DNA of 64,000 nt from an uncultured Pseudobdellovibrionaceae bacterium (GTDB taxonomy: Bacteria; Bdellovibrionota; Bdellovibrionia; Bdellovibrionales; UBA1609): NCBI GenBank assembly GCA_964360255.1, contig CAYHVK010000005.1:24233-88232 (forward strand). The letters run 5' to 3'. The notes below the pieces were generated by a model that saw nothing but the letters and a program-made list of their open reading frames with translations, searched no databases and was not told where the DNA came from. The stretch's first letter is position 1. Every line of letters starts with the position of its first letter. Below are positions 4,629-47,144 of the stretch, one piece after another. Position numbers and translations under genes: made by a program.

Positions 4629-5024
4629 ATGAAAGCATTTATGACTATGACAGTAGCAGCTTTAGCCGTATCTCAAGTGGCTTGCGCAGCCTCAAACACG
4701 AAAACAACATCGACTGAAACAAAAACTACAACGACAACAACATCAGCAGCGACAACAGCGCCAGCTGCGGCTCCTGCAGCTTCTTCAGCTGGCCGAGGCG
4801 GTTTCGTTGAAGATCGTTTGAAATTTAAAGTCACTGGCATGCACTGTGGTGGATGCGCAGATTCGATTAAAGAAGAAGTTGAAAAAGTTCCGGGCGTAGC
4901 AGAAGCGCAAGTGGATTTTAAAACAGGCGATGTGGTTGTGATTTCATCTGGCCCCAGCAAACTCGAGCGCGCCCCGGTTATTAAAGCCATTGAGAGCGCC
5001 GGAACATTTAAAGTTAAAAAGTAA
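4629..5024 (+). CDS. exported heavy-metal-associated (HMA) domain protein, CopZ/MerP-like
   Basis: ATG at 4629 is preceded by GGGAGA. The track ORF starts upstream at 4581 on a less likely codon. Signal peptide, Thr/Ala-rich linker, then HMA fold with the GMHCGGC metal-binding motif. Confidence 0.8.
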   Translation: MKAFMTMTVAALAVSQVACAASNTKTTSTETKTTTTTTSAATTAPAAAPAASSAGRGGFVEDRLKFKVTGMHCGGCADSIKEEVEKVPGVAEAQVDFKTGDVVVISSGPSKLERAPVIKAIESAGTFKVKK

Positions 5025-5064
5025 GTCGTTGAAATCAACGGCTCACTTAAAATAAGGATGAAAA

Positions 5065-5748
5065 ATGGGAAATTTAGATCCATTACATTTAATCAGCTTA
5101 ATTTTTATTGGATTTGTTCCATTTTTATTTTCTCTTTGTTTTCATGAAATGGCTCACGCCTGGATGGCGAAGAAAAAAGGCGACAGCACTGGTGAAGTCA
5201 TGGGTCGTCTTTCAATGAACCCTTTTGTCCATGCCGATCCGGTAGGAACTTTTATTCTACCGCTTTCATCGATTCTGTTTCAGGCGCCGCTTTTCTTCGG
5301 GTGGGCGAAGCCTGTTCCGGTGAATGAGAGAAACTTAAGCAAGCCTCGCGAAGATATGTTCTGGATTGCCATTGCAGGCCCAGCTTCAAATCTTCTTCTG
5401 GCTATAATTGCAGCTTTTGTTTGTGCAGGGGCCTCAGTTTTTGGCGGATTTTCAGCAGGGCAGACGACTCAAAGTATTGCGGGTTTTGCCTACAGCCTGG
5501 TGCTCGTTAATATGATGCTCGCTATGTTTAATATGATACCGCTTCACCCTCTCGATGGCGGAAAGGTGATCGCCCGATTTCTGCCTTATTCTGCCAATCG
5601 CTTCCTTGAAGACAATGCGCAGAAGCTGAATATCGCTCTGATCTTGCTTTTCCTCGTTGGTGGACTGAGCTTTCTGGGCCATTACATTCGCACTGCTGCT
5701 TATTTCTTAGTCACGATTTGTGAATTTTGCTTACGCCTGATCTTTTAG
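5065..5748 (+). CDS. site-2 protease family (peptidase M50) membrane metalloprotease
   Basis: HEMAHAW (HExxH) in TM1 and NMIPLHPLDGGKV (NxxPxxxLDG) motifs. Multi-pass membrane profile. Confidence 0.85.
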   Translation: MGNLDPLHLISLIFIGFVPFLFSLCFHEMAHAWMAKKKGDSTGEVMGRLSMNPFVHADPVGTFILPLSSILFQAPLFFGWAKPVPVNERNLSKPREDMFWIAIAGPASNLLLAIIAAFVCAGASVFGGFSAGQTTQSIAGFAYSLVLVNMMLAMFNMIPLHPLDGGKVIARFLPYSANRFLEDNAQKLNIALILLFLVGGLSFLGHYIRTAAYFLVTICEFCLRLIF

Positions 5749-5829
5749 GCCCTTAAATTCCATTTTTATGCCATGCATCATCCCATTCAATTTATTGAAA
5801 GATAGGGTCTAGCTTGGTTGAATCACCCT

Positions 5830-6975
5830 ATGACAAATCTACATGTAGAGATTGATCGTTTCTCGGGCCCGATGGCTCTTTTGCTGCACCTTATCCGCCA
5901 GCAAGAAATGGACATATTCGATATTAATATCCATGAGATAACGGCGAAATATCTAGAATCAGTTAAACAAATGAAGAAGCTGAATCTAGAAGGTGCCGGT
6001 GAATTTATCGCCATGGCTGCCACGCTTATTCAAATTAAATCTAAGATGCTTCTGCCGCAATATAATGAAGAGGGCGAAGTTGTTGAAACTGAAGACCCAC
6101 GCCGCGATTTAGTTCGTCGTTTGATTGAATATCAAATGTACCAAGAGGCCGGTCAAAAAATGTATCAGATGCCTTTGCTCAATCGTGACGTTTGGGCGCG
6201 CGCTGAAGCCGAGAAAATCGAAACTCCGGATTCTGAAATTATCATCGAAGAAGACAACGCACTTTACGCTTTAATCGCAGCTTACCGCGCAGCTATGAAG
6301 AATATGAAAAAAGCTGTTCATAAAGTGGGCGAGGCGATGCAATCCATTCGTGAGCGCATCTGGGAACTTAAAGACCAGCTCGTTGTGGGCCGTGAAGCTC
6401 GATTCTTTGAGCTTGTTGAGACGGGCTCTCGTGCGGGTGATCGTAAAGCTCAACTCTTGATTACATTTCTATCGCTTCTTGAGCTTGGTAAAATGAATTT
6501 CGTGGCTCTTTTCCAAGCAGAAAACTTCGCAGACATTCATGTGGAGCCGAAGAAGAACATCGATAAAGACGTGATGTCAAAAGTTGAAGACTATGAATCA
6601 GCTCAAAAACTCTCTCTTGGAGCAGGTGAAGCCAATCCGACAGTGAGCACACAAGTTGAATTTAATATGCAAGATGAGAACTGGGATGAGGAGCCAACTC
6701 ACGCCACAGAAACGCAAGTGGCCGCAGGCTTGTTACACACACCAGCTCCAGTGGATGATGCCACTCTTGATGCAATGATCGAGAGCGAAATCGGTGCTGA
6801 AGATGACTCTATTGAGAACTACGAATCTGTAACTGAAGCCGCCTCAGCCGATGCAGTACCGCAGATAGCTGAAGTGCCGACTGAAGAGTCAGCATCTGAT
6901 GATGATATTTTGGCCGAAGAATTAAAAATTGAGCAAGAGGACAGCGAAAATGGCGAAGAAGAAACCTCAGTCTAA
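5830..6975 (+). CDS. scpA: segregation and condensation protein A with a long acidic C-terminal tail
   Basis: N-terminal FSGPMALLLHLIRQQEMDIFDINIHEITAKYL is ScpA-like. Start is ambiguous (TTG 5818 or ATG 5830). The last roughly 130 aa are D/E-rich. Confidence 0.85.
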   Translation: MTNLHVEIDRFSGPMALLLHLIRQQEMDIFDINIHEITAKYLESVKQMKKLNLEGAGEFIAMAATLIQIKSKMLLPQYNEEGEVVETEDPRRDLVRRLIEYQMYQEAGQKMYQMPLLNRDVWARAEAEKIETPDSEIIIEEDNALYALIAAYRAAMKNMKKAVHKVGEAMQSIRERIWELKDQLVVGREARFFELVETGSRAGDRKAQLLITFLSLLELGKMNFVALFQAENFADIHVEPKKNIDKDVMSKVEDYESAQKLSLGAGEANPTVSTQVEFNMQDENWDEEPTHATETQVAAGLLHTPAPVDDATLDAMIESEIGAEDDSIENYESVTEAASADAVPQIAEVPTEESASDDDILAEELKIEQEDSENGEEETSV

Positions 6976-8536
6976 AAAGACGAAGACGAAAAAAGTTGAT
7001 AATGCGGCTCAAGCAGCTGAAGAAAACGTAGAGACGTTGGTGATCAATGCGGGTTCGGCAATGGCCATGTTTGAAATGCAAGGCGACTCAATCGACTTCG
7101 TCGATGAAGTGACAGCTGAAGCCGAAGCACTTGAGGCGTCAGGCGCTGATGAAGCTGCTGACGCCAATGATGGCACGACAATAGCCATCGACGCTTCAAT
7201 TTTTGATGCGAGCGCAGCTGGTAACGAAGACGCCGAAGTGGCGGCCCTTGATGATGAAGCTCTTTCTTTTGATGGCGAAATGTCGACTCTCGAGTCTGAC
7301 GAAGAAATGGCTGTGACGGCGGCTGATACTGAAGGTACTGAGCTTGAAGGCTTTGCTTCTGCAGAAATCGAAGACGTTGAAGAAATTCCTGAAGAGAAAA
7401 TGGTTTCGATTGTTGAGAGTTTACTTTTTGCCAGCGACAAGCCACAAAGCGTAGCTGTGTTAAAAGCGGCATTTGCCGGAACAAAAATTCGCTCGGCCGA
7501 CATTCGTAAAGCCCTTAAGCATCTTGAAGTTGAGTACATGAGTGGCAACCGCGGTGTTGAACTTGTTGAAGTAGCTTCGGGCTACCAGATTCGCACAAAG
7601 CCAGAGAATGCTGTTTACATGCAGCGGACCATCAAAGCTCGTCCGTTCAGACTTTCGGGCCCAGCTTTAGAAGTGTTATCAATCGTGGCTTACAAACAGC
7701 CTTGCCCTAAAGCGATGGTCGATGAAATCCGCGGCGTTGAATCAGGTCACTTAATGCGTGGCTTACTTGATCGCGGTCTTATCAACTTCGGTGAGAAGAG
7801 CGATCTGCCAGGTCGCCCTATGTATTACGAAACAACGCGCAAGTTCTTAGAAATCTTTGGCCTTCGCCAAGTTCAAGAACTTCCGACTTTAAATGAAATT
7901 GATCAGTTGATTCCTGAGGGTATCGGTCAGCCAGAAGAAGAGAAGAAACAAACTCTCAGTGATCTGACGGGCGAACTTTCACAAACAGTTGGCACAACTT
8001 ATTCTGAAGGTGAAGCAGATCTCACTTCAATCTCTGAAGAGCTTCAGGGCATTAATCTCAGCACGGCTTTCTTTGAAGAAGAAAAACTTCGCCAGCGTCA
8101 GAAAAAAGATCTTGAGAAAGCTCAAGAGATCCGCGAGCGCATGGTGATTGGTGAAACCGTCGCCACTCGTGAGAAAAACTGGCTTGAGAAATTTGATAAC
8201 GGCACGCTTTACGCTGCAAAGGTAAATCCATTTGCGAAGAAGAAGCAGGCTGACACGCCGACTGACGTTTACGTCGAAGAGCCAGTGAATATTGAAGAAG
8301 CTGTATCGGTTCTTGCTGGCCCTATCGATGAGCCAGAAGATGTGCCGATGATGGATGAAGTTGAAGCTCCATCAGCCCTTGAGGCGTCTGAATCAGCGGC
8401 AGAACTAGCGACGACGACTGACGATCTCATGGAAGACATGGAGCTTGAAGAGATGCTGGCCGATGAAGAAGAGCTCGATGAAACTCTACTTGCAGATACA
8501 GATGGTTCTGAACCTGAAGAGACTCCACAAATATAA
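6950..8536 (+). CDS. scpB: segregation and condensation protein B with acidic N- and C-terminal extensions
   Basis: Core IVESLLFASDKPQSV...GVELVEVASGYQIRTKPE...LSGPALEVLSIVAYKQPCPKAMVDEIRGV is the ScpB double winged helix. ATG 6950 has an AAGAGGA RBS; the track start is TTG 6929. Overlaps the scpA 3' end. Confidence 0.85.
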   Translation: MAKKKPQSKKTKTKKVDNAAQAAEENVETLVINAGSAMAMFEMQGDSIDFVDEVTAEAEALEASGADEAADANDGTTIAIDASIFDASAAGNEDAEVAALDDEALSFDGEMSTLESDEEMAVTAADTEGTELEGFASAEIEDVEEIPEEKMVSIVESLLFASDKPQSVAVLKAAFAGTKIRSADIRKALKHLEVEYMSGNRGVELVEVASGYQIRTKPENAVYMQRTIKARPFRLSGPALEVLSIVAYKQPCPKAMVDEIRGVESGHLMRGLLDRGLINFGEKSDLPGRPMYYETTRKFLEIFGLRQVQELPTLNEIDQLIPEGIGQPEEEKKQTLSDLTGELSQTVGTTYSEGEADLTSISEELQGINLSTAFFEEEKLRQRQKKDLEKAQEIRERMVIGETVATREKNWLEKFDNGTLYAAKVNPFAKKKQADTPTDVYVEEPVNIEEAVSVLAGPIDEPEDVPMMDEVEAPSALEASESAAELATTTDDLMEDMELEEMLADEEELDETLLADTDGSEPEETPQI

Positions 8537-23520: not shown

Positions 23521-24449
23521 AAAGCTTAATCTTTTTATGTGTTTTAACTTCGTTGCCGGCTCGCGCTGCGGTCGATTATTCCCTCGATAAACTTCATGAA
23601 ATCAAAAAAGGATGGAGTGAAGAGGGAGTGCATCGCGATCATTGCCGGGCGAGCGAAGAATTTATTAAAACTATCGAGTTTTTGCGAAAAGACCAAACCA
23701 TTCCCGAGAAAGAGATTAGAAAAATCGCCGAAGTGGTGAGCCGCGGATGTGATGGGTCGGCCGAACGATTTTCAAAGGCGTACTTGCTTATGAAAAAATC
23801 TGGTTTGTCTTTTCAGAAGTCTGTAGATGTGGGCTTGGCGATGGTTCGTGAGAGCCCAGTGACCGTCTCTAATTTTTACGAAATCTTCGAGAAAATGTAT
23901 TTAGGCGAGTTTTTTGATGTTAATTTTCAGTCGTCATTTGAAATCGCGTTCGAGCTTTCAAAAGAATTTAAGGGCAATTTAGAGTTTGCTCGTAATGACT
24001 TCAACGATTTTTCAAAGTTCTGTATGGATCATAAAAAAGTCGGTTTAAGTGTTACAAATTGCGCTAAGTTGGCTGTTCGTTTCGCTCGGTTGAGCCAGTA
24101 TTTTCCGAACCGTCTGTTCAAAGATTTTAATGAAATTTATCTGCTTCTGCGTGAAGATAAACGATTTGGCTTATCTCTTCAAGAGAGCCTCAATCTGACT
24201 GAGCAAATTTTAAAAAATGGTCCGGCTGCAAAGAAAAATTTCTTACAAGCTTTTAATTATGCCGTGATGAAAAACGGTCTTAACATAAGCGGAAGAGAAG
24301 CTCTTGATTTTGCTTTACGAATGGCCGCGCGCTCTTATAAGGGTGAATATCCGCCCATCTACCCTGGCGAACAAATGTTTCAGAACGTGTCTCAAGATGA
24401 AACAGAATCGACTTTTCAAGACGAAAAGCGCGAGCCGTCGAAGCACTAG
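23508..24449 (+). CDS. hypothetical secreted helical protein
   Basis: 313 aa. TTG start overlaps the previous stop. Signal peptide LIFLCVLTSLPARA-AV. Confidence 0.6.
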   Translation: MDFLKSLIFLCVLTSLPARAAVDYSLDKLHEIKKGWSEEGVHRDHCRASEEFIKTIEFLRKDQTIPEKEIRKIAEVVSRGCDGSAERFSKAYLLMKKSGLSFQKSVDVGLAMVRESPVTVSNFYEIFEKMYLGEFFDVNFQSSFEIAFELSKEFKGNLEFARNDFNDFSKFCMDHKKVGLSVTNCAKLAVRFARLSQYFPNRLFKDFNEIYLLLREDKRFGLSLQESLNLTEQILKNGPAAKKNFLQAFNYAVMKNGLNISGREALDFALRMAARSYKGEYPPIYPGEQMFQNVSQDETESTFQDEKREPSKH

Positions 24450-38212: not shown

Positions 38213-38826
38213 TGGTTATAGGAGTCGCCGGCGGCAGTGGATCAGGTAAGACAACTTTCGCAAGAGAGTTGCTCGCCCGTGTGGGCGTTGATCGCACACT
38301 CATTCTTCTGCAAGACTCTTACTACTTTGATCGCAGCAAAGACTTCAAAGGTGATGGTTCGCTGAATTTTGACCACCCAGATTCAATTGATTGGGATTTA
38401 ATGGCTGAGCATATTCAGCTCCTCAAGCAAGGTGAAACCATTGATTTGCCGATTTATGATTTTGCCACTCACAGTCGCCTGAAAGAAGTGGAGCTTGTTA
38501 AAGCCAAGCCTATTATTATCGTCGATGGAATTTTAATTTTTTATCCTGATCAAATTCGTGATCTTTTAGACTTAAGTATTTATATCGATACGCCAGACCA
38601 TGTTTGTTTCGAGCGCCGCCTCTACCGTGACACTCACGAGCGGGGTCGCACCGCCGAAGGTGTGCGCGTGCAGTATACAACAACTGTGCGTCCTATGCGT
38701 GAGCAGTTCGTTGAGCCCTCAAAAGCTTTGGCTGACCAGGTCGTCAGTGGCCAAGTCGATTTCAAAGCTGAAATCGAACGCGTGTACAAAGAAATCTCTA
38801 ATTTTAATTCTGAAGAGCTAGTTTAA
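38212..38826 (+). CDS. udk: uridine kinase
   Basis: P-loop GVAGGSGSGKTT, then LLQDSYYFD, NFDHPDSIDWDL, YDFATHSR. The GTG start overlaps the upp stop. Confidence 0.92.
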   Translation: MVIGVAGGSGSGKTTFARELLARVGVDRTLILLQDSYYFDRSKDFKGDGSLNFDHPDSIDWDLMAEHIQLLKQGETIDLPIYDFATHSRLKEVELVKAKPIIIVDGILIFYPDQIRDLLDLSIYIDTPDHVCFERRLYRDTHERGRTAEGVRVQYTTTVRPMREQFVEPSKALADQVVSGQVDFKAEIERVYKEISNFNSEELV

Positions 38827-38840
38827 CCGGGCACCTTTTA

Positions 38841-40256
38841 TTACCCGACAAAAAAACGGATCAGTTTCATTTTGAAGTCGGTGTAAGGCGGGTAGCGCAT
38901 CGTCGCATCAAGGGCGAACCATTTTTTAAGCACTGATTTTTTATGAGAGAAAACCTCAAAGCTGTCATTGCCATGGTACCGACCCATACCGCTCTCGCCA
39001 ATTCCGCCGAACGGAAGATTCGGATTGGCTAAGTGAATTATGCAATCATTCACGCAAGCTCCACCGAAAGGCATTGTGCTGAGTACATGATCTTGTAGAT
39101 CTTTGTTTTTAGTGAAGAGATAAAAAGAAAGCGGTTTCGGCTCAGAGGCAATTTTAGTTAAAGCCTCATCAATGTTTTCATAAACAAAGATCGGCAGAAT
39201 AGGGCCAAAGATTTCTTCTTTCATTACGGGGTCACTCCATGACACGTTTTTTAAGAGTGTCGGGGCAATTTTCAACTTGGCGGCGTCGGTCTGACCACCG
39301 CAAATCAACTGATCGGCTTTGATAAAGGCTGAGAGGCGAGAGAAGTGCCCGGCGCCAACAATACGCGCTAGGCTGTCACTTTTGATGGGTTCTGGCCCAT
39401 AAAATTCAGTGATGGTTTTCTTCAGGCTTTCAATAAACTGATTGGCAATATTTTTGTGAACATAAACATAATCCGGAGCCACACAAGTCTGAGACGCATT
39501 CATAAACTTGCCCCAAATAATTCGGCGCGCCGCTGTTTGCATTTCAATATCCTGATCGACAATACACGGAGACTTACCGCCCAACTCTAAACAAACCGGC
39601 GTTAAATGAGCCGCGGCTTTTTGCATGACGATTTTGCCAACGCGAGTACTTCCAGTGAAAAAGATAAAATCGAATTTTTCATTGAGCAGAGCTTCAGATT
39701 CAGGGATGCCTCCACCGATGCAGGCCACATGTTCAGGAGCAAAAACTTCTGCAATCAATTTTAAAATAAACTTTTGTGTTTCAGGCGTCATTTCAGAAGG
39801 TTTTAAAATGACTGTATTACCAGCGGCAACGGCACCCACCAGAGGGGATAACGCTAATTGAAAGGGATAATTCCAGGGGGCAATAATAAGCGTTGAACCA
39901 AACGGCTCTGAATAAATATAAGAACTTGAGGGCCATAAGACCGAAGGTGTCCAAACGCGTTTAGGTTTGGCGAGTTTATTTAAATTTTTAATCATGTGCG
40001 TGATTTCGCCGACCACATAAGAAATTTCTGTTGAATAGGCCTCAAGCTTCGGTTTGCCGAGGTCCGCTGCCAAAACTTTCATAATCTCAGCTTCTTTGGC
40101 GATAATGGCATTTTTAAGTTTAAGAAGCGCTTCTTTACGAAACTCAATGGGGCGCGAGGCGCCGGTCATAAAGAACTTTCTCTGCTTTTGAACTAAATCA
40201 CCGTAACTCGTATTCATTGAAGCCGCCTTAACTTGTAATTCAACTTGAGCATCCAT
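38841..40256 (-). CDS. aldehyde dehydrogenase, class 3-like
   Basis: 471 aa. Catalytic Glu and Cys contexts LELGGKSP and NASQTCVAPDY. GAGGTGA RBS. Confidence 0.92.
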   Translation of the reverse strand: MDAQVELQVKAASMNTSYGDLVQKQRKFFMTGASRPIEFRKEALLKLKNAIIAKEAEIMKVLAADLGKPKLEAYSTEISYVVGEITHMIKNLNKLAKPKRVWTPSVLWPSSSYIYSEPFGSTLIIAPWNYPFQLALSPLVGAVAAGNTVILKPSEMTPETQKFILKLIAEVFAPEHVACIGGGIPESEALLNEKFDFIFFTGSTRVGKIVMQKAAAHLTPVCLELGGKSPCIVDQDIEMQTAARRIIWGKFMNASQTCVAPDYVYVHKNIANQFIESLKKTITEFYGPEPIKSDSLARIVGAGHFSRLSAFIKADQLICGGQTDAAKLKIAPTLLKNVSWSDPVMKEEIFGPILPIFVYENIDEALTKIASEPKPLSFYLFTKNKDLQDHVLSTMPFGGACVNDCIIHLANPNLPFGGIGESGMGRYHGNDSFEVFSHKKSVLKKWFALDATMRYPPYTDFKMKLIRFFVG

Positions 40257-40282
40257 CTTTCACCTCGTATCCTATCTATATT

Positions 40283-41485
40283 ATGAAATACGCCTCTATA
40301 CTGAAAGAGAATAATGTACGTTTGCCTGCGGCTTTTGCTGATCTTGCGGCTTTTGACCAGAACTTGCGCCGTGTGGCAGAGACGGTGAAGCAAAATGGCT
40401 TTCCGATACGAGTGGCAACGAAATCTATTCGAGTCCCAGCATTGATCAAGCGCGCTTTAGATTTCGGTGGCCCTTATAAAGGTTTGATGTGTTATTCGGC
40501 TTATGAGGCGGCTTTTTTAGCCCAACAAGGCTTCGATGATTTTTTAATTGCGTATCCCACTTTGCATACGGGCGAAATAAAAGCTCTCTTAGATTTACAT
40601 GTTTCAGGTAAAAAAGTTTATCTGGTGGTCGATGATATTCGGCATTTGCAGGCTCTTGATTCTGCTATCACACTTTACGCCATGGCTATGCAGCCGTCAT
40701 GGCGTCCCTTCGAAGTCTTGGCTGAAATTGATCTCTCGGTGCGTATCAGCTCATTAGTTTTAGGCGTTAGACGCAGCCCTTTACGATCTATCGAGCAAAT
40801 TATTAATTTCGTCGGCCAAGTTCAAAAATTTAAAAGTTTAAAATTTAAAGGTTTTATGGCCTACGAAGCCCAGGTGGCAGGGTTAGGCGATAATAATCCA
40901 TTTAAAAAAATGATGAATATTGCGATACGCCCCTTTCGTAAGTGGAGCATGCATAAAATCATTCAAAAAAGAAAAGCCTTGCTTGAGGCCTGCCAGCATA
41001 AAAATATCAAAATCGAACTGTTCAATGGCGGCGGAACCGGCAGCACCTTAATGCACGGTGCAGAAGTAGGGGTACTCACTGAACTCACGGTGGGAAGCGG
41101 ATTTTTATGCTCACATCTTTTTGATTACTACACTAATTTTCAGCCTGAGCCTTCAGGCTTTTTCGCCGTTCAAGCGGTTCGTCAGCCCGAGCCGAACTGG
41201 TACACCTGCGCCGGAGCTGGATACGTAGCTTCAGGTGAACCAGGTCTCGACCGTTTACCGCGCCCCTATGATGCTGATCAAAAGCTTTCAAGTTTTGAAG
41301 GCGCTGGCGAAGTGCAAACTCCCGTCTATTCTGAAGCGGCTATTGCTCTCGGTGACCCAGTGATTTTTCGCCCCGCCAAAGCTGGCGAATGGTTAGAGCG
41401 CTTCAATGAAATTCATTTGATCCAAGACGATCACATCGTCGAGAGCGCTAAGACTTATCGTGGCCATGGCGAGTGTTATTTTTAG
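40283..41485 (+). CDS. fold-type III PLP enzyme (alanine racemase N-terminal domain family; amino-acid aldolase/deaminase-like)
   Basis: 400 aa. PLP-lysine context IRVATKSIRV, TIM-barrel-like periodicity, and a C-terminal beta domain. Confidence 0.7.
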   Translation: MKYASILKENNVRLPAAFADLAAFDQNLRRVAETVKQNGFPIRVATKSIRVPALIKRALDFGGPYKGLMCYSAYEAAFLAQQGFDDFLIAYPTLHTGEIKALLDLHVSGKKVYLVVDDIRHLQALDSAITLYAMAMQPSWRPFEVLAEIDLSVRISSLVLGVRRSPLRSIEQIINFVGQVQKFKSLKFKGFMAYEAQVAGLGDNNPFKKMMNIAIRPFRKWSMHKIIQKRKALLEACQHKNIKIELFNGGGTGSTLMHGAEVGVLTELTVGSGFLCSHLFDYYTNFQPEPSGFFAVQAVRQPEPNWYTCAGAGYVASGEPGLDRLPRPYDADQKLSSFEGAGEVQTPVYSEAAIALGDPVIFRPAKAGEWLERFNEIHLIQDDHIVESAKTYRGHGECYF

Positions 41486-41599
41486 ACAGTTACTTGCAAC
41501 CTCCTCTAAATCTAAGACCGCCCTTCTTCAATCTTTTAGATATGCTCATTCAGATTTTGAAATATTTCTGTATTTCATGGAGGTTGTGTTCATTTACTA

Positions 41600-41639
41600 C
41601 TCCGATCGAAGTCGAGAGATTCCTCGACTTCGATCGGAG
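41600..41639. terminator. 17-bp perfect hairpin between convergent genes (bidirectional terminator)
   Basis: CTCCGATCGAAGTCGAG-agattc-CTCGACTTCGATCGGAG. Confidence 0.65.
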
Positions 41640-41699
41640 TGGTTTCGAGAAGGGTAGGACATCTAAGTATCGAGAGAAAAGCTGAAGGTCGAGTGTAGA

Positions 41700-42134
41700 T
41701 TAAGCGTCTAGCGTAGCTTGCGAAGTGGCATCACCACGAATCATTGTGGGCTGATAGCCTACAATATCGGTCGGCACGGCTCCGCCATAGGCTGCGCCTT
41801 TGAGGCCTGAGTAGTAGAGTGAGAAGATAATGCCGCGCAAGCCAAAGCGCACGAGCAAGAAAGGCATTGCGATAAAGGCGGGCCAGCGTGTGGCGCGCTC
41901 AAGAGTGGCCACTAAAAATGTCAGTACAAATGTTGGCATAAATGAAAGCACTGTGAGCAATAATCCTAAATCATTGCGGTCTTGATCGGGGAGATCAGTG
42001 ATCACGAGATCAATATGTTCAATGGCTCCTAGTTCTGAAAAAGCGGGGAAGGGAGCATTGGCGGGGCAGTAAATATCACCGATGCGATTAAAGACACCGA
42101 TTTGCCTCGCGCCGAGAAATTGCGAAGTGCTCAT
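41700..42134 (-). CDS. small membrane protein, putative partner subunit of the GMC oxidoreductase
   Basis: 144 aa with two or three hydrophobic helices. Its start overlaps the GMC stop by 4 nt. Confidence 0.55.
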   Translation of the reverse strand: MSTSQFLGARQIGVFNRIGDIYCPANAPFPAFSELGAIEHIDLVITDLPDQDRNDLGLLLTVLSFMPTFVLTFLVATLERATRWPAFIAMPFLLVRFGLRGIIFSLYYSGLKGAAYGGAVPTDIVGYQPTMIRGDATSQATLDA

Positions 42135-43561
42135 GTTAGGGCCTTTCTCACTGAGGTCGCCGCCATTTGGCTGAAGGCCATAATAGTCAGTGATGGATTC
42201 AATCCCGGTGCTGACGGAAATATACTGGAGTCAGCGATAAATACATTTTTATTTTCATGTAAGCTGAAGTCTGGTGCGACTACAGATTTTTTTGAATCCG
42301 TACCAATAGCGCATCCACCCATTAAATGGAGGCCAAAACCTTGCGCGCACTGAATGGTTTCGCGACCACCAACAGAGTCGAACATTTCGCGAACTAACTT
42401 TAAACCATTGTTCGCACGCTCGCGATCACGAGCGGTTATTTCTTTTTTAATGATCAGCTTGCCTTTTTTAACGGCGAGTTCGCCGCTGGCTTCATCACGT
42501 ATCGCCACTTCCATTGAAGACATGTAACGATAGCGCTTCATAATCTCTTGGTGTTTTTTGCCGTAACCATCAAAAAGCATAGATGTGGCAATTGGCGGCG
42601 CAAATACATTCTCGAATTTAATGCCCATTTTGCGCAGGCCCTTGTCATCAGACTTCACCGCTTGAAACGCTCCTTTGAAAGCATCGATAGGCTCATCAAA
42701 AAAGCTGTAAGACATGTATTGAGGGTGACAAGCGATGCCTTTACCTAAAGCTGGAGCTTTCGCACCGTAATCAGACTGTAATAAAATTTTAGAAGTTCCG
42801 AAGCTGCCAGCGGCTAATACAAGTTTGCGACATTGATACTGAACCGGTTTTTTTGCGCCATTTTCTTTGATGAACGCGCTGATAACCACGGGTTTGTGGC
42901 TACCATCACCGCTTGAGATGCTTTCTACTTCACAATTGGCTTGAACCTGAAGACCTTTTTTTTCAGCCCGAGCAATCCAAGTGGCCATTGTGCTTTGTTT
43001 TGAATTGCGGTGGCAGCCACCTAAGCAAACGATGCAATCATTGCCTTTTTCAAGGGCACAGTCTGTTTGACCACGACGAAGCGGCGTCCAGCCTAAACCT
43101 TTTTTATCAAAAGCATTTGTGAAGAGCTGAGAATTTTTATTAAAAAATTTTTTTTCAATTTTTTGCAAACTTAAGCTTTTCTCAACAGTTGAGTAAGCTT
43201 CTTCAATGTATGAATCAGAGAATTTGATTCCTGAGATATCAGACCATTCTGTCCAGACGGCATCGTCGAAACGATCGAGCAGAGCTTGATTTACAATTGA
43301 AGTGCCGCCAACAGCACGAGCTCTTAAGAAGCCTAATTGTGCGCTGGTGTTCAGCTCAACGCCACCACCCCAGAACAAATGGGCGGAGCTTAAAACTTCA
43401 GGTTTCGGAAAATCTTTGGCTTTAAAGTAAGGGCCGGCTTCGAGCATAAGAACTTTCGCTCCGCTTTCTATCATTTCTAAAGCGAGGCGACCACCTGAAG
43501 GGCCCGAGCCGACAACAATGACATCGTAAACAGCCGGAGTGCTGATGTTCACTGAACTCAT
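42131..43561 (-). CDS. GMC-family FAD oxidoreductase
   Basis: 476 aa. N-terminal YDVIVVGSGPSGGRLALEM...MLEAGP. C-terminal GMC-type block ending ADSSIFPSAPGLNPSLTIMA. Confidence 0.88.
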   Translation of the reverse strand: MSSVNISTPAVYDVIVVGSGPSGGRLALEMIESGAKVLMLEAGPYFKAKDFPKPEVLSSAHLFWGGGVELNTSAQLGFLRARAVGGTSIVNQALLDRFDDAVWTEWSDISGIKFSDSYIEEAYSTVEKSLSLQKIEKKFFNKNSQLFTNAFDKKGLGWTPLRRGQTDCALEKGNDCIVCLGGCHRNSKQSTMATWIARAEKKGLQVQANCEVESISSGDGSHKPVVISAFIKENGAKKPVQYQCRKLVLAAGSFGTSKILLQSDYGAKAPALGKGIACHPQYMSYSFFDEPIDAFKGAFQAVKSDDKGLRKMGIKFENVFAPPIATSMLFDGYGKKHQEIMKRYRYMSSMEVAIRDEASGELAVKKGKLIIKKEITARDRERANNGLKLVREMFDSVGGRETIQCAQGFGLHLMGGCAIGTDSKKSVVAPDFSLHENKNVFIADSSIFPSAPGLNPSLTIMAFSQMAATSVRKALT

Positions 43562-44250
43562 GCGATCTTGCCTCCTGCTGCCGGATTAGCGAATTGCGAA
43601 TAGAATTTGAAAATAAACCAAAGGCTTGTAGCGGTGAGGACGTGCCAAGTCGCGTGTCCGCTTATCCAATGAAGATCAGGATTGCATAAGATTCTCGAGC
43701 GATCGAGATTCCAGATTAAGAAAGCCAATTGTAAAGCAATGAAGCTGAAAATAAACCATCGGTAAGAGGGCTTTGTGGGATTTTTTCTCCACAAAAGAAA
43801 CTCTAAAATTACAAACCACGTGACTTGGCCAGCAAATAAAAAAGAGCCACTGAGGGGTTCGATAATTAAAATGGCCACGGTAATTAACCCTAAACTCACG
43901 GCGCAGATATTGGCTTTTTTCTGCGACCATAAATGCAGGCGGGCGTAGTTGGCTGAAATTAAATAGACTGAAATTAAAAACATAGATGAGAAGTCGACGA
44001 TCTCGCCGATCAAGCTGCCAGAGGCGTGATAAAATCCTGACATCAGGCCAAGAAGAATGGCGAAGAAACCTAAAATTCTTTGTGGACCTAAGTTGGCTTT
44101 TCTACATTCAATAAGAATCATAATGCCGATAATAATATAAGCCAGATTCGACCACGTGTTAGCGGGTTCGCGAATCCAAGAGCAGAGTTGGCGCTCACAC
44201 CACTGAAGAGTAGCTGGAGCTAATGTCGACCAGGGGCAGATGTCTTCCAT
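43558..44250 (-). CDS. alkaline ceramidase-like (CREST superfamily) seven-TM hydrolase
   Basis: Motifs WCE...IREPANTWSNLAYI, FYHAS, DFSSM and GHATWHVL match the conserved His/Ser/Asp/HxxxH set of ceramidase/PAQR-type hydrolases. Confidence 0.7.
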   Translation of the reverse strand: MEDICPWSTLAPATLQWCERQLCSWIREPANTWSNLAYIIIGIMILIECRKANLGPQRILGFFAILLGLMSGFYHASGSLIGEIVDFSSMFLISVYLISANYARLHLWSQKKANICAVSLGLITVAILIIEPLSGSFLFAGQVTWFVILEFLLWRKNPTKPSYRWFIFSFIALQLAFLIWNLDRSRILCNPDLHWISGHATWHVLTATSLWFIFKFYSQFANPAAGGKIA

Positions 44251-44305
44251 GTCTTAAAAGCGTAAGGGGACAATGGGCAATTGTATAGCGTTGGTGTACA
44301 AAAAA

Positions 44306-44722
44306 TTAAGATTTTTTCGGTTGCACCGCTTCAAGCCATTCAGGAATGGGTGAAATGATTTTACGCTTCTGCATATCGAAAAGTGCGATGGTGAGTTCGA
44401 TTTCGCTACAGACCTCGCCTTTAGCGTTGGTCATCGTTTGAAAGACTTTTGCAATCTTGCCCGTATAAGGAGGGCAGCGAGAAGTAATTTTAATGCGTTC
44501 ACGAGCCTTTAGTTCTCGCTTATATCTAACAGTCACCTCAAGAATGGTCGGGCCAATTTGAAGGTCTTTGATTTTATCAAGGCCGAATCCACCTGAAGAG
44601 ATCCACTCCCAGCGAGCCTGTTCATAAATCTTTAAGTAATTGGCATGATTCACATGGCCAAAAGTATCGAGATCAGTTTCTTGAATAATTATATCATGTT
44701 GGTGTTCGTAAGGTTGCGTCAT
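44306..44722 (-). CDS. 4HBT/YbgC-type acyl-CoA thioesterase
   Basis: 138 aa hotdog fold. Motif ETDLDTFGHVNHANYLKIYEQARWEW. Confidence 0.8.
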   Translation of the reverse strand: MTQPYEHQHDIIIQETDLDTFGHVNHANYLKIYEQARWEWISSGGFGLDKIKDLQIGPTILEVTVRYKRELKARERIKITSRCPPYTGKIAKVFQTMTNAKGEVCSEIELTIALFDMQKRKIISPIPEWLEAVQPKKS

Positions 44723-46107
44723 GATTTCGCCACCACCGATGTGGGCGCTTCTTTAATTTTTTTCGCGAGAAAGAAACAAAGAACTACGGCTGGAATTCCG
44801 ATGAGTGCAGTGATCAAAAAGAAAATGGCATAGGCTTCAAAGAGTTGATGTGTGCTCTTAAGTGAATCGACAATAAGTCCAGAAGTCCCTCTCAGAGTTT
44901 TTCCTAATAGAGTGTAGAATGAGCTTAAGAGAGCATACTGAGTGGCTGTGTAGCCGATTGAGGTCAGGGTCGACATGTATCCGACGAGCGCGGTTCCGGC
45001 AAAGCCGGTGGAAAAGTTATCAATCAACATAACCGTAGCGAAAACATCATGCTGACTTCCCATGAGTGCCAAATATGAAAACCCAAGGTTTGATGCCGGG
45101 CCTAAAATTGCGCCTAAGATCATCGTAGTTCTCAGGCCGAAACGAATGGCACAGAGTCCTGCAGCTGCGATACCAGCGAGTGAAGCGAAGAGTCCAATCG
45201 ATCCGCGCACGGCGCCGACCACTTCTTTGGCTATTCCGAGATCGGCGTAAAGTGGGTTGGCCATTGGGCCCATGAAAAAATCAGGTAGTCGATAAAGACT
45301 CACTGCTGCTAAAATTAAAGCGGCCTGCGCGCCGTGGGCTTTAAAAAACTGAATAAACGGACCAGCAATGGCGTCATACATTGAACGTAAAGAAACTTTT
45401 GCTCCCTTGATGGTTTCAACCGCTGATCGTGTCGGTTCAATGGCGAAGAAAGTTGCAATAACTCCGACGCTCATTAATGCGGCCATTGTCATGTAAGAAA
45501 GCGACCAGCCCATTTGAGCGGCGAGAATAAGAATCAATGAGTCTGTGACTAAAAGAGCGGCTCGATAACCAAGCTGATACGATGAGGATAACATGGCCAT
45601 CTCTTCGCTGTTCTCAGAGGCTTCGATTCGCCAAGCATCGATAACAATATCTTGGGTTGAGCTGGCAAAGGCGGCGAGTGCAGCAAGTGCTGTAAATAAA
45701 CCGATTCCGCCCTCGGGCTGAATAATCGCCATCGCTATTAGTGCAAATGCGATTAAGAGTTGTGCTAATACCATCCAGCCGCGTCGGCGACCCAGAAAAC
45801 GTCCTAAAATAGGTGCATCTATTTTATCAACAAGTGGGGCCCACAAAAACTTAAATGAATAGGCAAACCCGATCCAAGAAATAAAGCCGATTGTAGTGAG
45901 CTCAATTCCGCCTTCTCGTAGCCAGTATCCCATCGTATTGCCAACCAACATAAATGGTAAGCCCGCAGCAAAACCCAAACCTAGCATGACAGCAACTTTT
46001 GGCTGGCCAACCGCACGAAGGGTGTCTTTCCAGGTGAGCTTACGTGAGACTTTATCGACTTGTGTATTGGACAAGGTGCAACTCCTGTTGAATATGGCTG
46101 AACTCAA
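44719..46107 (-). CDS. AmpG-family MFS transporter
   Basis: 462 aa, roughly 12-14 TM helices. Motif GLGFAAGLPFMLVGNTMGYWLREGG...FKFLWAPLVD is typical of the AmpG/acetyl-CoA-transporter family. Confidence 0.8.
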   Translation of the reverse strand: MSSAIFNRSCTLSNTQVDKVSRKLTWKDTLRAVGQPKVAVMLGLGFAAGLPFMLVGNTMGYWLREGGIELTTIGFISWIGFAYSFKFLWAPLVDKIDAPILGRFLGRRRGWMVLAQLLIAFALIAMAIIQPEGGIGLFTALAALAAFASSTQDIVIDAWRIEASENSEEMAMLSSSYQLGYRAALLVTDSLILILAAQMGWSLSYMTMAALMSVGVIATFFAIEPTRSAVETIKGAKVSLRSMYDAIAGPFIQFFKAHGAQAALILAAVSLYRLPDFFMGPMANPLYADLGIAKEVVGAVRGSIGLFASLAGIAAAGLCAIRFGLRTTMILGAILGPASNLGFSYLALMGSQHDVFATVMLIDNFSTGFAGTALVGYMSTLTSIGYTATQYALLSSFYTLLGKTLRGTSGLIVDSLKSTHQLFEAYAIFFLITALIGIPAVVLCFFLAKKIKEAPTSVVAKS

Positions 46108-46214
46108 TTAAATTGGAACGCTGAAGGCCACAGTTGGCAAGTGTTGTTTGTGAAGTTCTCTATAAAAACTTTTGCCTATTTGCAAAGTTTAGAAACACTA
46201 GAGATACTAATATT

Positions 46215-47144
46215 ATGAAAATTTTAAGCCTCAAAGAATCCATTGAGAAGTTGTCGCAGTTAAATGTGAAACGCAAATACTGGGTGATGTACTCGAGTTT
46301 GTACGGCGGGCTTGTGAAAGACCCTGAAGCTATGGTGATTCCGCTTGATGATCATATGGTTCATCGCGGAGACGGAATTTTTGAAGCCTTTCGTTTTCAT
46401 AATAAAAAGATTTTTGATGTTGATGGTCACTTAAACCGTCTTTTGCGCTCGGCCGATCTTGTTTCACTTAAGATGCCCTTTTCTAAAGATGAAATTGCAA
46501 ATATTTGCCAGGCTGTAGTCGATAATTCGCCAGAGCCAGTCGGCATGCTCCGCTTATTTGTCTCTCGTGGTTTTGGTGATTTTTCTCCTAACCCTTATAG
46601 TACAACGGGGTCACAGCTGTTTGTGGTTTCGATGCCGTTTAATCAGCTGCCGACTGAGAAGTATGAAAAAGGGGCGAGCATTGGTTTTTCAAAAGTGGCG
46701 GTTAAGCCCGGTGTATTTGCGCAGGTGAAAAGCTGCAATTATTTGCCAAATGTACTCACCAAAAAAGAATCCATCGATAATGGTTGGGACTTTTCTATTA
46801 ATGTCACAGAAGAGGGGTGGATTGCCGAAGGTCCGACGGAGAATATTTTAGTTTTAAATGCGAAGAATGAATTGTTGGCTCCGAAGTTTGATTACACCCT
46901 TCGCGGTACGACTTTACTGAAAGTTTTAGAGCTGGCCGAGAGGTTTAAATCTCAGCTGGGTTTGACTCAAATCACCAACGCCGATGTTAAGGCGCAAGAT
47001 TTGGTAAAAGCGAAAGAAGTAATGATGGTAGGTACAACTCTTGGAGTACTGCCGGTGACCAAAGCAAATGGCCAAGCCTTAGGTCTAGGTTGCCCGGGGC
47101 CTGTTGCCAAGCTTTTAAATTCTGAGCTGAACAAGTTATTTTAA
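46215..47144 (+). CDS. class IV (branched-chain / D-amino acid) aminotransferase family protein
   Basis: ATG 46215. Motifs HRGDGIFEAFRF and the PLP-lysine context QVKSCNYLPNVLTKKE. Confidence 0.8.
   Translation: MKILSLKESIEKLSQLNVKRKYWVMYSSLYGGLVKDPEAMVIPLDDHMVHRGDGIFEAFRFHNKKIFDVDGHLNRLLRSADLVSLKMPFSKDEIANICQAVVDNSPEPVGMLRLFVSRGFGDFSPNPYSTTGSQLFVVSMPFNQLPTEKYEKGASIGFSKVAVKPGVFAQVKSCNYLPNVLTKKESIDNGWDFSINVTEEGWIAEGPTENILVLNAKNELLAPKFDYTLRGTTLLKVLELAERFKSQLGLTQITNADVKAQDLVKAKEVMMVGTTLGVLPVTKANGQALGLGCPGPVAKLLNSELNKLF

Follow-up and report, generated by a model that had tools for sequence, protein, structure and literature searches.

Sphingoid bases are antimicrobials and signaling lipids of hosts. 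Their destruction by bacteria is an open question, and sphBCD of Pseudomonas aeruginosa is the only system that has been studied (PMC11893366). These genes are induced by sphingosine (PMC3900636) and belong, along with the neutral ceramidase gene cerN, to the SphR regulon; they encode a cytochrome c, a flavin oxidoreductase, and a threonine-aldolase-like enzyme dependent on pyridoxal 5′-phosphate (PLP) (PMC3900636, PMC11893366). A logic of oxidation followed by retro-aldol cleavage was proposed for them and left unproven (PMC3900636), and their chemistry and product are still undefined (PMC11893366). Here, we describe a gene module from an uncultured Pseudobdellovibrionaceae bacterium, located in a 64,000-nucleotide (nt) stretch (positions 24,233 to 88,232 of contig CAYHVK010000005.1, assembly GCA_964360255.1; hereafter, the window) of a genome that is 99.9% complete (G000). 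Its core is a flavoprotein of the GMC family together with a 144-amino-acid (aa) partner protein, to which are linked a PLP enzyme of the D-threonine aldolase / D-3-hydroxyaspartate aldolase (DTA) family and an aldehyde dehydrogenase (ALDH); in the window, the GMC gene is also overlapped by a gene for a membrane protein of the alkaline ceramidase type. This module may well constitute a kinase-free catabolic route that would take ceramide and sphingoid bases to glycine and fatty acid.

In this reading, the module is a new enzymatic variant of a route that, in Pseudomonas, has not yet gone beyond hypothesis. By published descriptions, cerN and sphBCD share with it the combination of a ceramidase, a flavin oxidoreductase, and a PLP enzyme of the aldolase type, and the two systems would share the logic of oxidizing sphingosine at C1 before a retro-aldol step that yields glycine along with a long-chain aldehyde. 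Their machinery differs: Pseudomonas SphC is a periplasmic FMN/FAD-linked oxidase that is exported by the twin-arginine translocation (Tat) system and associated with the cytochrome c SphB (PMC11893366), an arrangement not matched by the module, whose oxidoreductase is a GMC protein that has no signal peptide, is predicted to be a cytoplasmic dehydrogenase with an Fe-S cluster, and is paired with a new, small, non-cytochrome protein. The module's ceramidase is of the membrane CREST type and lies in the same predicted operon, and ALDH is integral to the module (even fused to the partner in some lineages) and would account for the conversion of aldehyde to acid, which is missing from the Pseudomonas scheme. 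The eukaryotic route (sphingosine kinase, sphingosine-1-phosphate [S1P] lyase, and the fatty aldehyde dehydrogenase FALDH/ALDH3A2) would have in common with the module a PLP-dependent cleavage between C2 and C3 to a long-chain aldehyde, which passes to a class-3 ALDH. No kinase or S1P lyase homologue is linked to the module, however, and the base would be activated by turning C1 into a carboxylate instead of phosphorylating it, releasing glycine rather than phosphoethanolamine.

A conserved module of linked and fused genes

A genome scan with a single protein as query found nothing, whereas an alignment-based scan of species-representative genomes succeeded, returning 80 loci. In the eight closest loci (45 to 55% identity), from metagenome-assembled genomes (MAGs) labeled Bacteriovoracaceae or Bdellovibrionales, the ceramidase gene is followed by the GMC gene and then by the small gene, and the junctions overlap. 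The ceramidase-GMC-small gene triplet, which an earlier note on this DNA had picked out in the window, is thus conserved at eight other loci, and in the window and all eight the ceramidase gene overlaps the GMC gene. At most of them, a convergent homologue of the window's PLP enzyme gene and a homologue of its ALDH gene come next (coordinates in Table 1); ALDH is syntenic with the module in L008, L009, L010, L012/L122, and L014.

The linkage holds across a wider set of 27 loci, to which 20 long loci, six of the closest loci, and the window itself contribute. The GMC and small genes are adjacent at every one of them (18 as free genes found by a crude gene caller, six as fusions, and three detected by tblastn only), which identifies the 144-aa protein as a dedicated partner of the GMC enzyme, in line with the coupling that the earlier note had assumed. 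A DTA-family PLP gene lies within a few kilobases of this pair at 21 of the 27, where its order and orientation take at least five different forms (upstream, downstream, convergent, and divergent), an ALDH gene is present at 12, and a CREST ceramidase gene is present at eight. Three loci fetched later (L191 to L193) each carry the GMC gene, the small gene, a DTA-family gene, and an ALDH gene. In six loci of family f22 (L124, L125, L127, L132, L133, and L136), the small protein is fused to the N terminus of an ALDH, where it makes up the first 140 to 190 residues of a 630- to 684-aa protein; at these loci, the GMC gene overlaps the start of the fusion gene, and the PLP gene belongs to the same operon. 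The fusion ties the dehydrogenase and ALDH steps together and suggests that the small protein is a scaffold between the GMC dehydrogenase and the ALDH.

The conserved module is, then, the GMC enzyme and the 144-aa protein, with the DTA-family PLP enzyme and ALDH. The earlier note had presented as a set five components (an AmpG-type transporter, a thioesterase, the ceramidase-like protein, the GMC enzyme, and the small protein) and missed the PLP enzyme and the ALDH, conserved partners whose genes lie just outside the run that it covered. Within a sample of 401 genomes of the phylum, 44 contain the 144-aa protein. Where orthologues of the DTA-family enzyme occur in L170 (from a Polyangiaceae MAG) and L189 (from G473), genes for a GMC enzyme, the small protein, and an ALDH are all missing from the neighborhood.

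Amide hydrolases of three unrelated kinds are found at the module, varying with the lineage. Besides the CREST ceramidase, a neutral ceramidase (PF04734, ~300 bits) is divergent from the operon of PLP enzyme, GMC enzyme, and small protein::ALDH fusion in one genus (L124, L133, and L193), and in a second genus (L191 and L192) a neutral ceramidase 36% identical to that of the first lies inside the module (in the order PLP<>ceramidase-ALDH><small-GMC). The third is an amidase-signature enzyme, encoded directly upstream of the GMC gene in L118.

Some further observations concern the distribution of the module. The whole cluster (ceramidase, GMC, small protein, PLP enzyme, and ALDH) is 50 to 64% identical between members of different families, namely, G110 and G219 (f22:g84) versus G000 and G001 (f1:g1), and none of the remaining f1 genomes that were sampled (26 in the draw from the phylum) gave a small-protein match; this combination of identity and absence hints at horizontal transfer of the whole cluster between f1:g1 and f22:g84. 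One MAG labeled Lysobacteraceae (isolate WA131c; L075/L119/L169, G419) was rejected as independent evidence: it appears to be the same as G093, from the phylum of the window, and its public label is probably wrong. In L136, of f22, an aspartate-semialdehyde-dehydrogenase-like gene (6342-7448) stands directly before the GMC gene, with an aspartokinase-like gene (4840-6189) divergent from it; the link of such amino-aldehyde-handling enzymes to the module may go beyond chance.

The ceramidase-like protein

By family profile and modeled fold, the 230-aa protein is a true member of the alkaline ceramidase/CREST family, with ceramide hydrolysis as its putative activity. It scores 75.2 bits against PF05875 (cutoff, 32.5), and S71, H75, D86, H199, H203, and an N-terminal WCE motif are invariant among 29 homologues. 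The family profile matches the human alkaline ceramidase ACER3 (6g7o; E = 6e-12), the zinc-site residues aligning with the SxxxH, D, and HxxxH of ACER3. An AlphaFold model (pLDDT 93.8) has seven long helices, and its top match in the PDB by Foldseek is again ACER3 (6g7o; E = 1.5e-5, TMq 0.77), followed by Myomaker, SIDT1/2, and AdipoR1/2. Profile, zinc-site residues, and modeled fold thus agree with the family assignment of the earlier note, and the four motifs on which it was based (EPANTWSNLAY, FYHAS, DFSSM, and GHATWHVL) are all present in the translation; the absence of a CREST fold, which was to count against the assignment, was not found.

With ACER3 and other CREST proteins, the window protein shares the Pfam family, a fold of seven transmembrane (TM) helices, the Ser/His/Asp/His/His zinc-site residues, and the WCE motif. 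It is shorter than ACER3 (230 versus 267 aa) and has extra invariant cysteines (C5, C18, C23, and C189), its gene shares an operon with that of a dehydrogenase, and its activity is a prediction.

Other CREST proteins occur in different settings. The source genome has a second CREST ceramidase paralogue (C9:37659-38312; L006), at 32% identity, and a profile search gives a third match; neither adjoins a GMC gene. Three loci of the Bdellovibrionota type have a CREST homologue directly beside a gene of one and the same cluster (L004, 2166-3644; L040, 6551-7996; L037, 2243-2998): Pfam identifies the members in L004 and L040 as DNA photolyases, and the L037 member is shorter. In L037 and L040, the CREST homologue also has a DTA-family gene to one side and, to the other, a gene cluster that encodes succinate dehydrogenase in L040, the locus scanned.

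The GMC flavoprotein and its small partner

The 476-aa protein is a GMC enzyme by Pfam (PF00732, 98.6 bits; PF05199, 62.5 bits), with an invariant GxGxxG fold (G18, G20, G23, and E41) for binding flavin adenine dinucleotide (FAD). Its family profile is closest to the alpha subunits of FAD-dependent glucose dehydrogenase (FAD-GDH; 6a2u_B and 8hdd_A) and the large subunit of fructose dehydrogenase (FDH; 7w2j_A), at E values of 3e-24 to 5e-24 (next family, 6e-17). H412, conserved in at least 90% of members (H-L-M-G-G), and the invariant N455 (N-P-S), candidates for the C-terminal catalytic pair of GMC enzymes, align with the H...N region of 6a2u_B. Four further residues, C168, C176, C179, and C183, are invariant and align with the Cys-rich Fe-S loop of FAD-GDH alpha and the FDH large subunit: C179 and C183 correspond in the alignment to C218 and C222 of the Burkholderia cepacia enzyme (BcGDH) and C176 to the CC pair of FDH, although the spacing of the first Cys differs. 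In BcGDH, the 3Fe-4S cluster bound by this loop lies beside the small gamma subunit (PMC6719666). The flavoprotein of the window is, accordingly in family but not in type, what the earlier note had called it: membership in the GMC family stands, and the simple oxidase gives way to a protein that resembles an Fe-S-bearing dehydrogenase subunit and that, judging from its profile and Cys loop, is probably an FAD dehydrogenase with an Fe-S cluster.

As far as profile searches reach, the 144-aa partner is a new small protein family. It has no match in Pfam or NCBIfam; the Gluconate_2-dh3 family (PF13618) in particular matched none of 23 members at E values up to 10, and no match above its cutoff was found in relatives. 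A profile search of 1.84 billion proteins yielded 286 cluster representatives, and none of the 150 matches listed, which were not themselves Pfam scanned, pointed to a named family. In an AlphaFold model (pLDDT 91), the protein is a helical bundle of six main helices plus a four-residue turn. It has a single conserved hydrophobic stretch, at about residues 55 to 77, with a central proline; the "membrane subunit" of the earlier note keeps a weak basis in this stretch, the remainder being a helical bundle. Foldseek found no match to the model in the PDB, and in a wide structure search (48,161 chains) the gamma subunits 6a2u_A and 8grj_C rank third and fourth, with a Z score of 3.7 that ties them with unrelated helical proteins. 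The N termini of the family have no twin-arginine motif, and no cytochrome c was found among those module neighbors that were Pfam scanned, most neighbors not having been scanned.

The closest solved relatives of the window's GMC protein are, therefore, the catalytic subunits of two direct-electron-transfer complexes, B. cepacia FAD-GDH (gamma-alpha-beta, 6a2u) and Gluconobacter FDH (7w2j). Common to these complexes and the module are a Cys-rich loop, which in the module aligns with the 3Fe-4S ligands, and a small, all-helical partner encoded beside the catalytic subunit. The module departs from them in that its small protein lacks a Tat signal, has no PF13618 match, and resembles the gamma subunit weakly (the Z of 3.7); no cytochrome c subunit was seen among the scanned neighbors; the Cys motif is C-x2-C-x3-C rather than the C-x5-C-x3-C of the known complexes; the partner is fused to ALDH in some lineages; and the substrate is probably a lipid amino alcohol and not a sugar. 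A second, distant relative is CapO/CmO (8b7s), a GMC oxidoreductase that oxidizes the primary alcohol (C3-OH) of chloramphenicol, an N-acyl-2-amino-1,3-diol (PMC9590159). The likeness lies in a GMC enzyme acting on the primary alcohol of such a diol; 8b7s matches at E = 2.4e-14 over the FAD-binding N terminus only, has no small partner or known Cys cluster, and belongs to a context of xenobiotic degradation.

The PLP enzyme and the aldehyde dehydrogenases

The only PDB relatives of the PLP enzyme are a D-3-hydroxyaspartate aldolase and D-threonine aldolases (6qkb, 7yqa, 7dib, and 4v15). Its family profile matches 6qkb at E = 1e-24 and 7yqa, 4v15, and 7dib at 1e-22 to 4e-20, with D-specific hydroxy-amino-acid dehydratases next, and its invariant K47, in the N-terminal PLP barrel, aligns with the lysine (H-x-K) that forms the PLP Schiff base in known aldolases. 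The alignment with solved members is confined to residues 8 to 272; the last 130 residues, which the module family conserves, aligned with none of them. The window ALDH is closest to ALDH3A1 (3sza, 427 bits) and a fatty aldehyde dehydrogenase (4qgk, 418 bits), and its 471 aa correspond to the short length of class 3.

A proposed route for ceramide and sphingoid bases

From family membership, conserved catalytic residues, linkage, gene fusion, and co-occurrence, we infer the following substrates and reactions. The CREST ceramidase would take the N-acyl chain off a ceramide-like lipid at the cytoplasmic membrane (step 1). The GMC flavoprotein (with FAD and probably Fe-S), held by the 144-aa partner, would act on the sphingoid base at its primary alcohol, C1, dehydrogenating it to the aldehyde (step 2); steps 1 and 2 could also occur in the reverse order. 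An ALDH would turn the C1 aldehyde into a 2-amino-3-hydroxy fatty acid (step 3), which the PLP enzyme would split into glycine and a fatty aldehyde or, alternatively, dehydrate (step 4), and the class-3 (fatty-aldehyde-type) ALDH would convert the long-chain aldehyde into a fatty acid (step 5). The window ALDH may act on the amino-aldehyde, on the released fatty aldehyde, or on both.

Stereochemistry fits this scheme. Sphingosine has the (2S,3R) configuration; once C1 becomes a carboxyl group, the Cahn-Ingold-Prelog rules make the resulting acid (2R,3R), that is, D-configured and an analogue of D-allo-threonine, which would be why a D-specific aldolase family, and not an L-threonine aldolase, is linked to the module (both steps of this argument are our own). 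We regard a kinase-free route from ceramide and sphingoid bases to glycine and fatty acid as the probable function of the module, if still some way from certain. The fuller proposal is plausible yet tentative: that predatory Bdellovibrionota have a route for ceramide or sphingoid bases that dispenses with kinase and S1P lyase and runs via D-2-amino-3-hydroxy acids, with a new scaffold family coupling an Fe-S GMC dehydrogenase to an ALDH. Our search of the literature found no description of this module.

The distribution of ceramidases is consistent with such a function: one of the two ceramidase families occurs in 34 of the 44 module genomes versus 105 of the 357 others, and within family f22 the CREST type occurs in 17/18 module genomes versus 36/82 others and the neutral type in 10/18 versus 10/82. 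Several points weigh against it. Genomes of one phylum are not independent, such that Fisher P values for these counts overstate the association, and in the other 10 of the 44 module genomes neither ceramidase family was found. CREST proteins as a whole cannot be tied to the module, an idea that we rejected: the family occurs in many unrelated neighborhoods, and its more distant homologues (below ~43% identity) have mixed neighborhoods with no GMC gene nearby and, in some cases, photolyase or succinate dehydrogenase genes beside them. The metal-binding domain of known D-threonine aldolases has no aligned counterpart at the C-terminal end of the PLP enzyme, leaving aldolase and dehydratase chemistry indistinguishable, and the module-linked ALDHs are of different subfamilies (class 3 in the window and betaine/amino-aldehyde-like in the fusions). 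Finally, the source of the lipid is in question. The earlier note had proposed an amide-linked lipid, of which an amide-linked sphingoid lipid is now the best-supported class, and had looked to the organism's own sphingolipids; an endogenous sphingolipid is rejected for G000, which, despite its completeness, has no alpha-oxoamine synthase gene of the serine palmitoyltransferase (SPT) type (best TIGR00858-family score, only 25 bits). The substrate is thus probably not self-made, and either is external or differs from the one proposed; to our knowledge, typical Gram-negative prey lack sphingolipids.

Some of these points would be accommodated if the module acted on another N-acylated or free amino alcohol, such as N-acylethanolamines, serinol or other 2-amino-1,3-diol lipids, peptides ending in an amino alcohol, or a chloramphenicol-like product, with the ceramidase-family proteins serving as general amidases. 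The hydrolase at L118 belongs to the amidase-signature family, which includes fatty acid amide hydrolase (FAAH), a GMC enzyme is known to oxidize chloramphenicol (PMC9590159), G000 lacks the known route for making sphingoid bases, and the module genomes devoid of both ceramidase families fit as well. Peptidases (M14, M16, GGT, and M19) are also common neighbors of the module, but predators are protease rich, and such neighbors are expected by chance. What speaks for sphingoid lipids over other amino alcohols is that two unrelated hydrolase families associated with ceramide were recruited to the module independently and that a D-specific enzyme for beta-hydroxy amino acids is needed only when there is a 3-hydroxyl of the sphingoid configuration. 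We therefore judge a different amino alcohol to be an unlikely substrate, though one worth keeping in mind.

Gene layout and the five-gene run

An open reading frame (ORF) listing reproduced the coordinates that the earlier note had given for five minus-strand genes, including three 4-nt overlaps (42131-42134, 43558-43561, and 44719-44722) and a 55-nt gap (44251-44305) between the thioesterase and ceramidase genes; the AmpG ORF has a TTG start codon. Pfam and NCBIfam profile scores likewise bore out the family names AmpG, hotdog thioesterase, ceramidase-like, and GMC (Table 1).

Table 1. Features of the module and its surroundings in the window
Feature	Coordinates	Strand	Evidence or position
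Class-3 aldehyde dehydrogenase (ALDH), 471 aa	38841-40256	-	Pfam Aldedh, 292 bits
Fold-type-III PLP enzyme, D-threonine aldolase / D-3-hydroxyaspartate aldolase family (DTA), 400 aa	40283-41485	+	PDB relatives
21-bp inverted repeat, 95% complementary, 6-nt loop	41596-41643		Between the convergent ends of the PLP-enzyme and small-protein genes
Helical GMC partner protein, 144 aa, family without a Pfam model	41700-42134	-	No Pfam/NCBIfam match
GMC-family FAD flavoprotein, 476 aa, invariant Cys cluster	42131-43561	-	Pfam GMC_oxred_N and GMC_oxred_C
Alkaline-ceramidase/CREST-type 7-TM hydrolase, 230 aa	43558-44250	-	PF05875, 75 bits
Hotdog thioesterase, 4HBT_2 / YbgC-like, 138 aa	44306-44722	-	Pfam 4HBT_2, 80 bits
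AmpG-family MFS transporter, 462 aa	44719-46107	-	TIGR00901, 445 bits
Class-IV aminotransferase (AT4), divergent from AmpG	46134-47144	+	Pfam Aminotran_4, 142 bits

Co-transcription of the minus-strand genes is suggested by their spacing. A consensus scan of 38700-46400 found promoter-like and terminator-like sites to be no more frequent than in shuffled sequence, and the 55-nt gap contains no terminator-like site. The region 38841-44250 can be read as three predicted transcription units (ALDH; the PLP enzyme; and ceramidase, GMC, and small protein), and the inverted repeat, which has no T-run, is probably a terminator-like hairpin that works in both directions. Between the start codons of the divergent ALDH and PLP-enzyme genes lie 26 nt (40256-40283), leaving almost no space for two promoters, such that the annotated starts or the promoter positions are worth checking.

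The earlier note had taken the five genes for one operon and one pathway, in which AmpG would import an amide-linked lipid and the thioesterase would handle an acyl-CoA product. The AmpG/thioesterase overlap and the gap without a terminator-like site would allow read-through into the ceramidase gene, and, among the 20 other long loci, two (L118 and L119, from two other families) have an AmpG homologue 3 to 8 kb from the module, which is above the chance expectation for a single-copy gene. The two parts of the run are nevertheless conserved separately. AmpG and the thioesterase form a block of their own with the divergent AT4 gene, and this AT4<>AmpG-thioesterase arrangement recurs in G001, of the same genus (L144), and in G005 (L151), where the 3.7 to 4.2 kb examined held no ceramidase-family or GMC match beside it. 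Conversely, the eight syntenic ceramidase-GMC-small loci have other genes upstream in place of AmpG and the thioesterase. The window's AmpG (TIGR00901, 445 bits against a cutoff of 350) is also the sole AmpG-family gene in G000, which fits a housekeeping muropeptide permease, and AmpG is near the module at just three of the 21 long loci once the window is counted. The five-gene operon is, then, a juxtaposition of two separately conserved blocks, and a single pathway of all five genes is rather improbable. AmpG-thioesterase abuts the module in G000 and may be co-transcribed with it, and the L118 and L119 loci indicate that AmpG may have a loose functional tie to the module.

As an observation in its own right, an AmpG gene that overlaps a thioesterase gene, beside a transaminase of the D-amino-acid/branched-chain (BCAT) type, is conserved in G000, G001, and G005; this block may have a role in the recycling of prey peptidoglycan.

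Direction of the route and a parallel operon

A biosynthetic direction, in which the aldolase would condense glycine with a fatty aldehyde and reduction and N-acylation by a reversed ceramidase would yield ceramide independently of SPT, would suit the lack of an SPT-type gene in G000 and the established reversibility of D-threonine aldolases and alkaline ceramidases, but it is very improbable, given that ALDH reactions are practically irreversible, GMC dehydrogenases work oxidatively, no carboxylate reductase is linked to the module, and the fusion of ALDH with the partner argues for channeling of an aldehyde product.

A parallel to the catabolic route comes from the GTDB class to which G420 belongs, presumed to be Gammaproteobacteria, of which 400 genomes were sampled. 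One locus of that sample (L190; G472:C55:1-7056) encodes, in a row on one strand, an ALO/VAO-type oxidase, an 892-aa neutral ceramidase, a fold-type-III enzyme of the DTA family, a short-chain dehydrogenase/reductase (SDR), and a ketopantoate-reductase-like protein. From its gene content, it looks like an independent parallel and a candidate sph-like operon for sphingolipid catabolism.

Implications

The module represents a complete set of predicted enzymes, comprising an amidase, a dehydrogenase for primary alcohols together with its partner protein, an ALDH, and a PLP enzyme with D specificity, and stereochemistry provides the rationale for an enzyme of the D-threonine-aldolase type among them. 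The 144-aa partner defines a new protein family, for which fusion and linkage point to an aldehyde-channeling scaffold, and the module would extend the GMC dehydrogenase type with Fe-S cluster and small subunit to a cytoplasmic, cytochrome-free setting. If the proposed route is true, the module would provide the missing enzymology for the long-standing sphBCD hypothesis, and unrelated ceramidases and oxidases would have been recruited convergently to the same chemistry.

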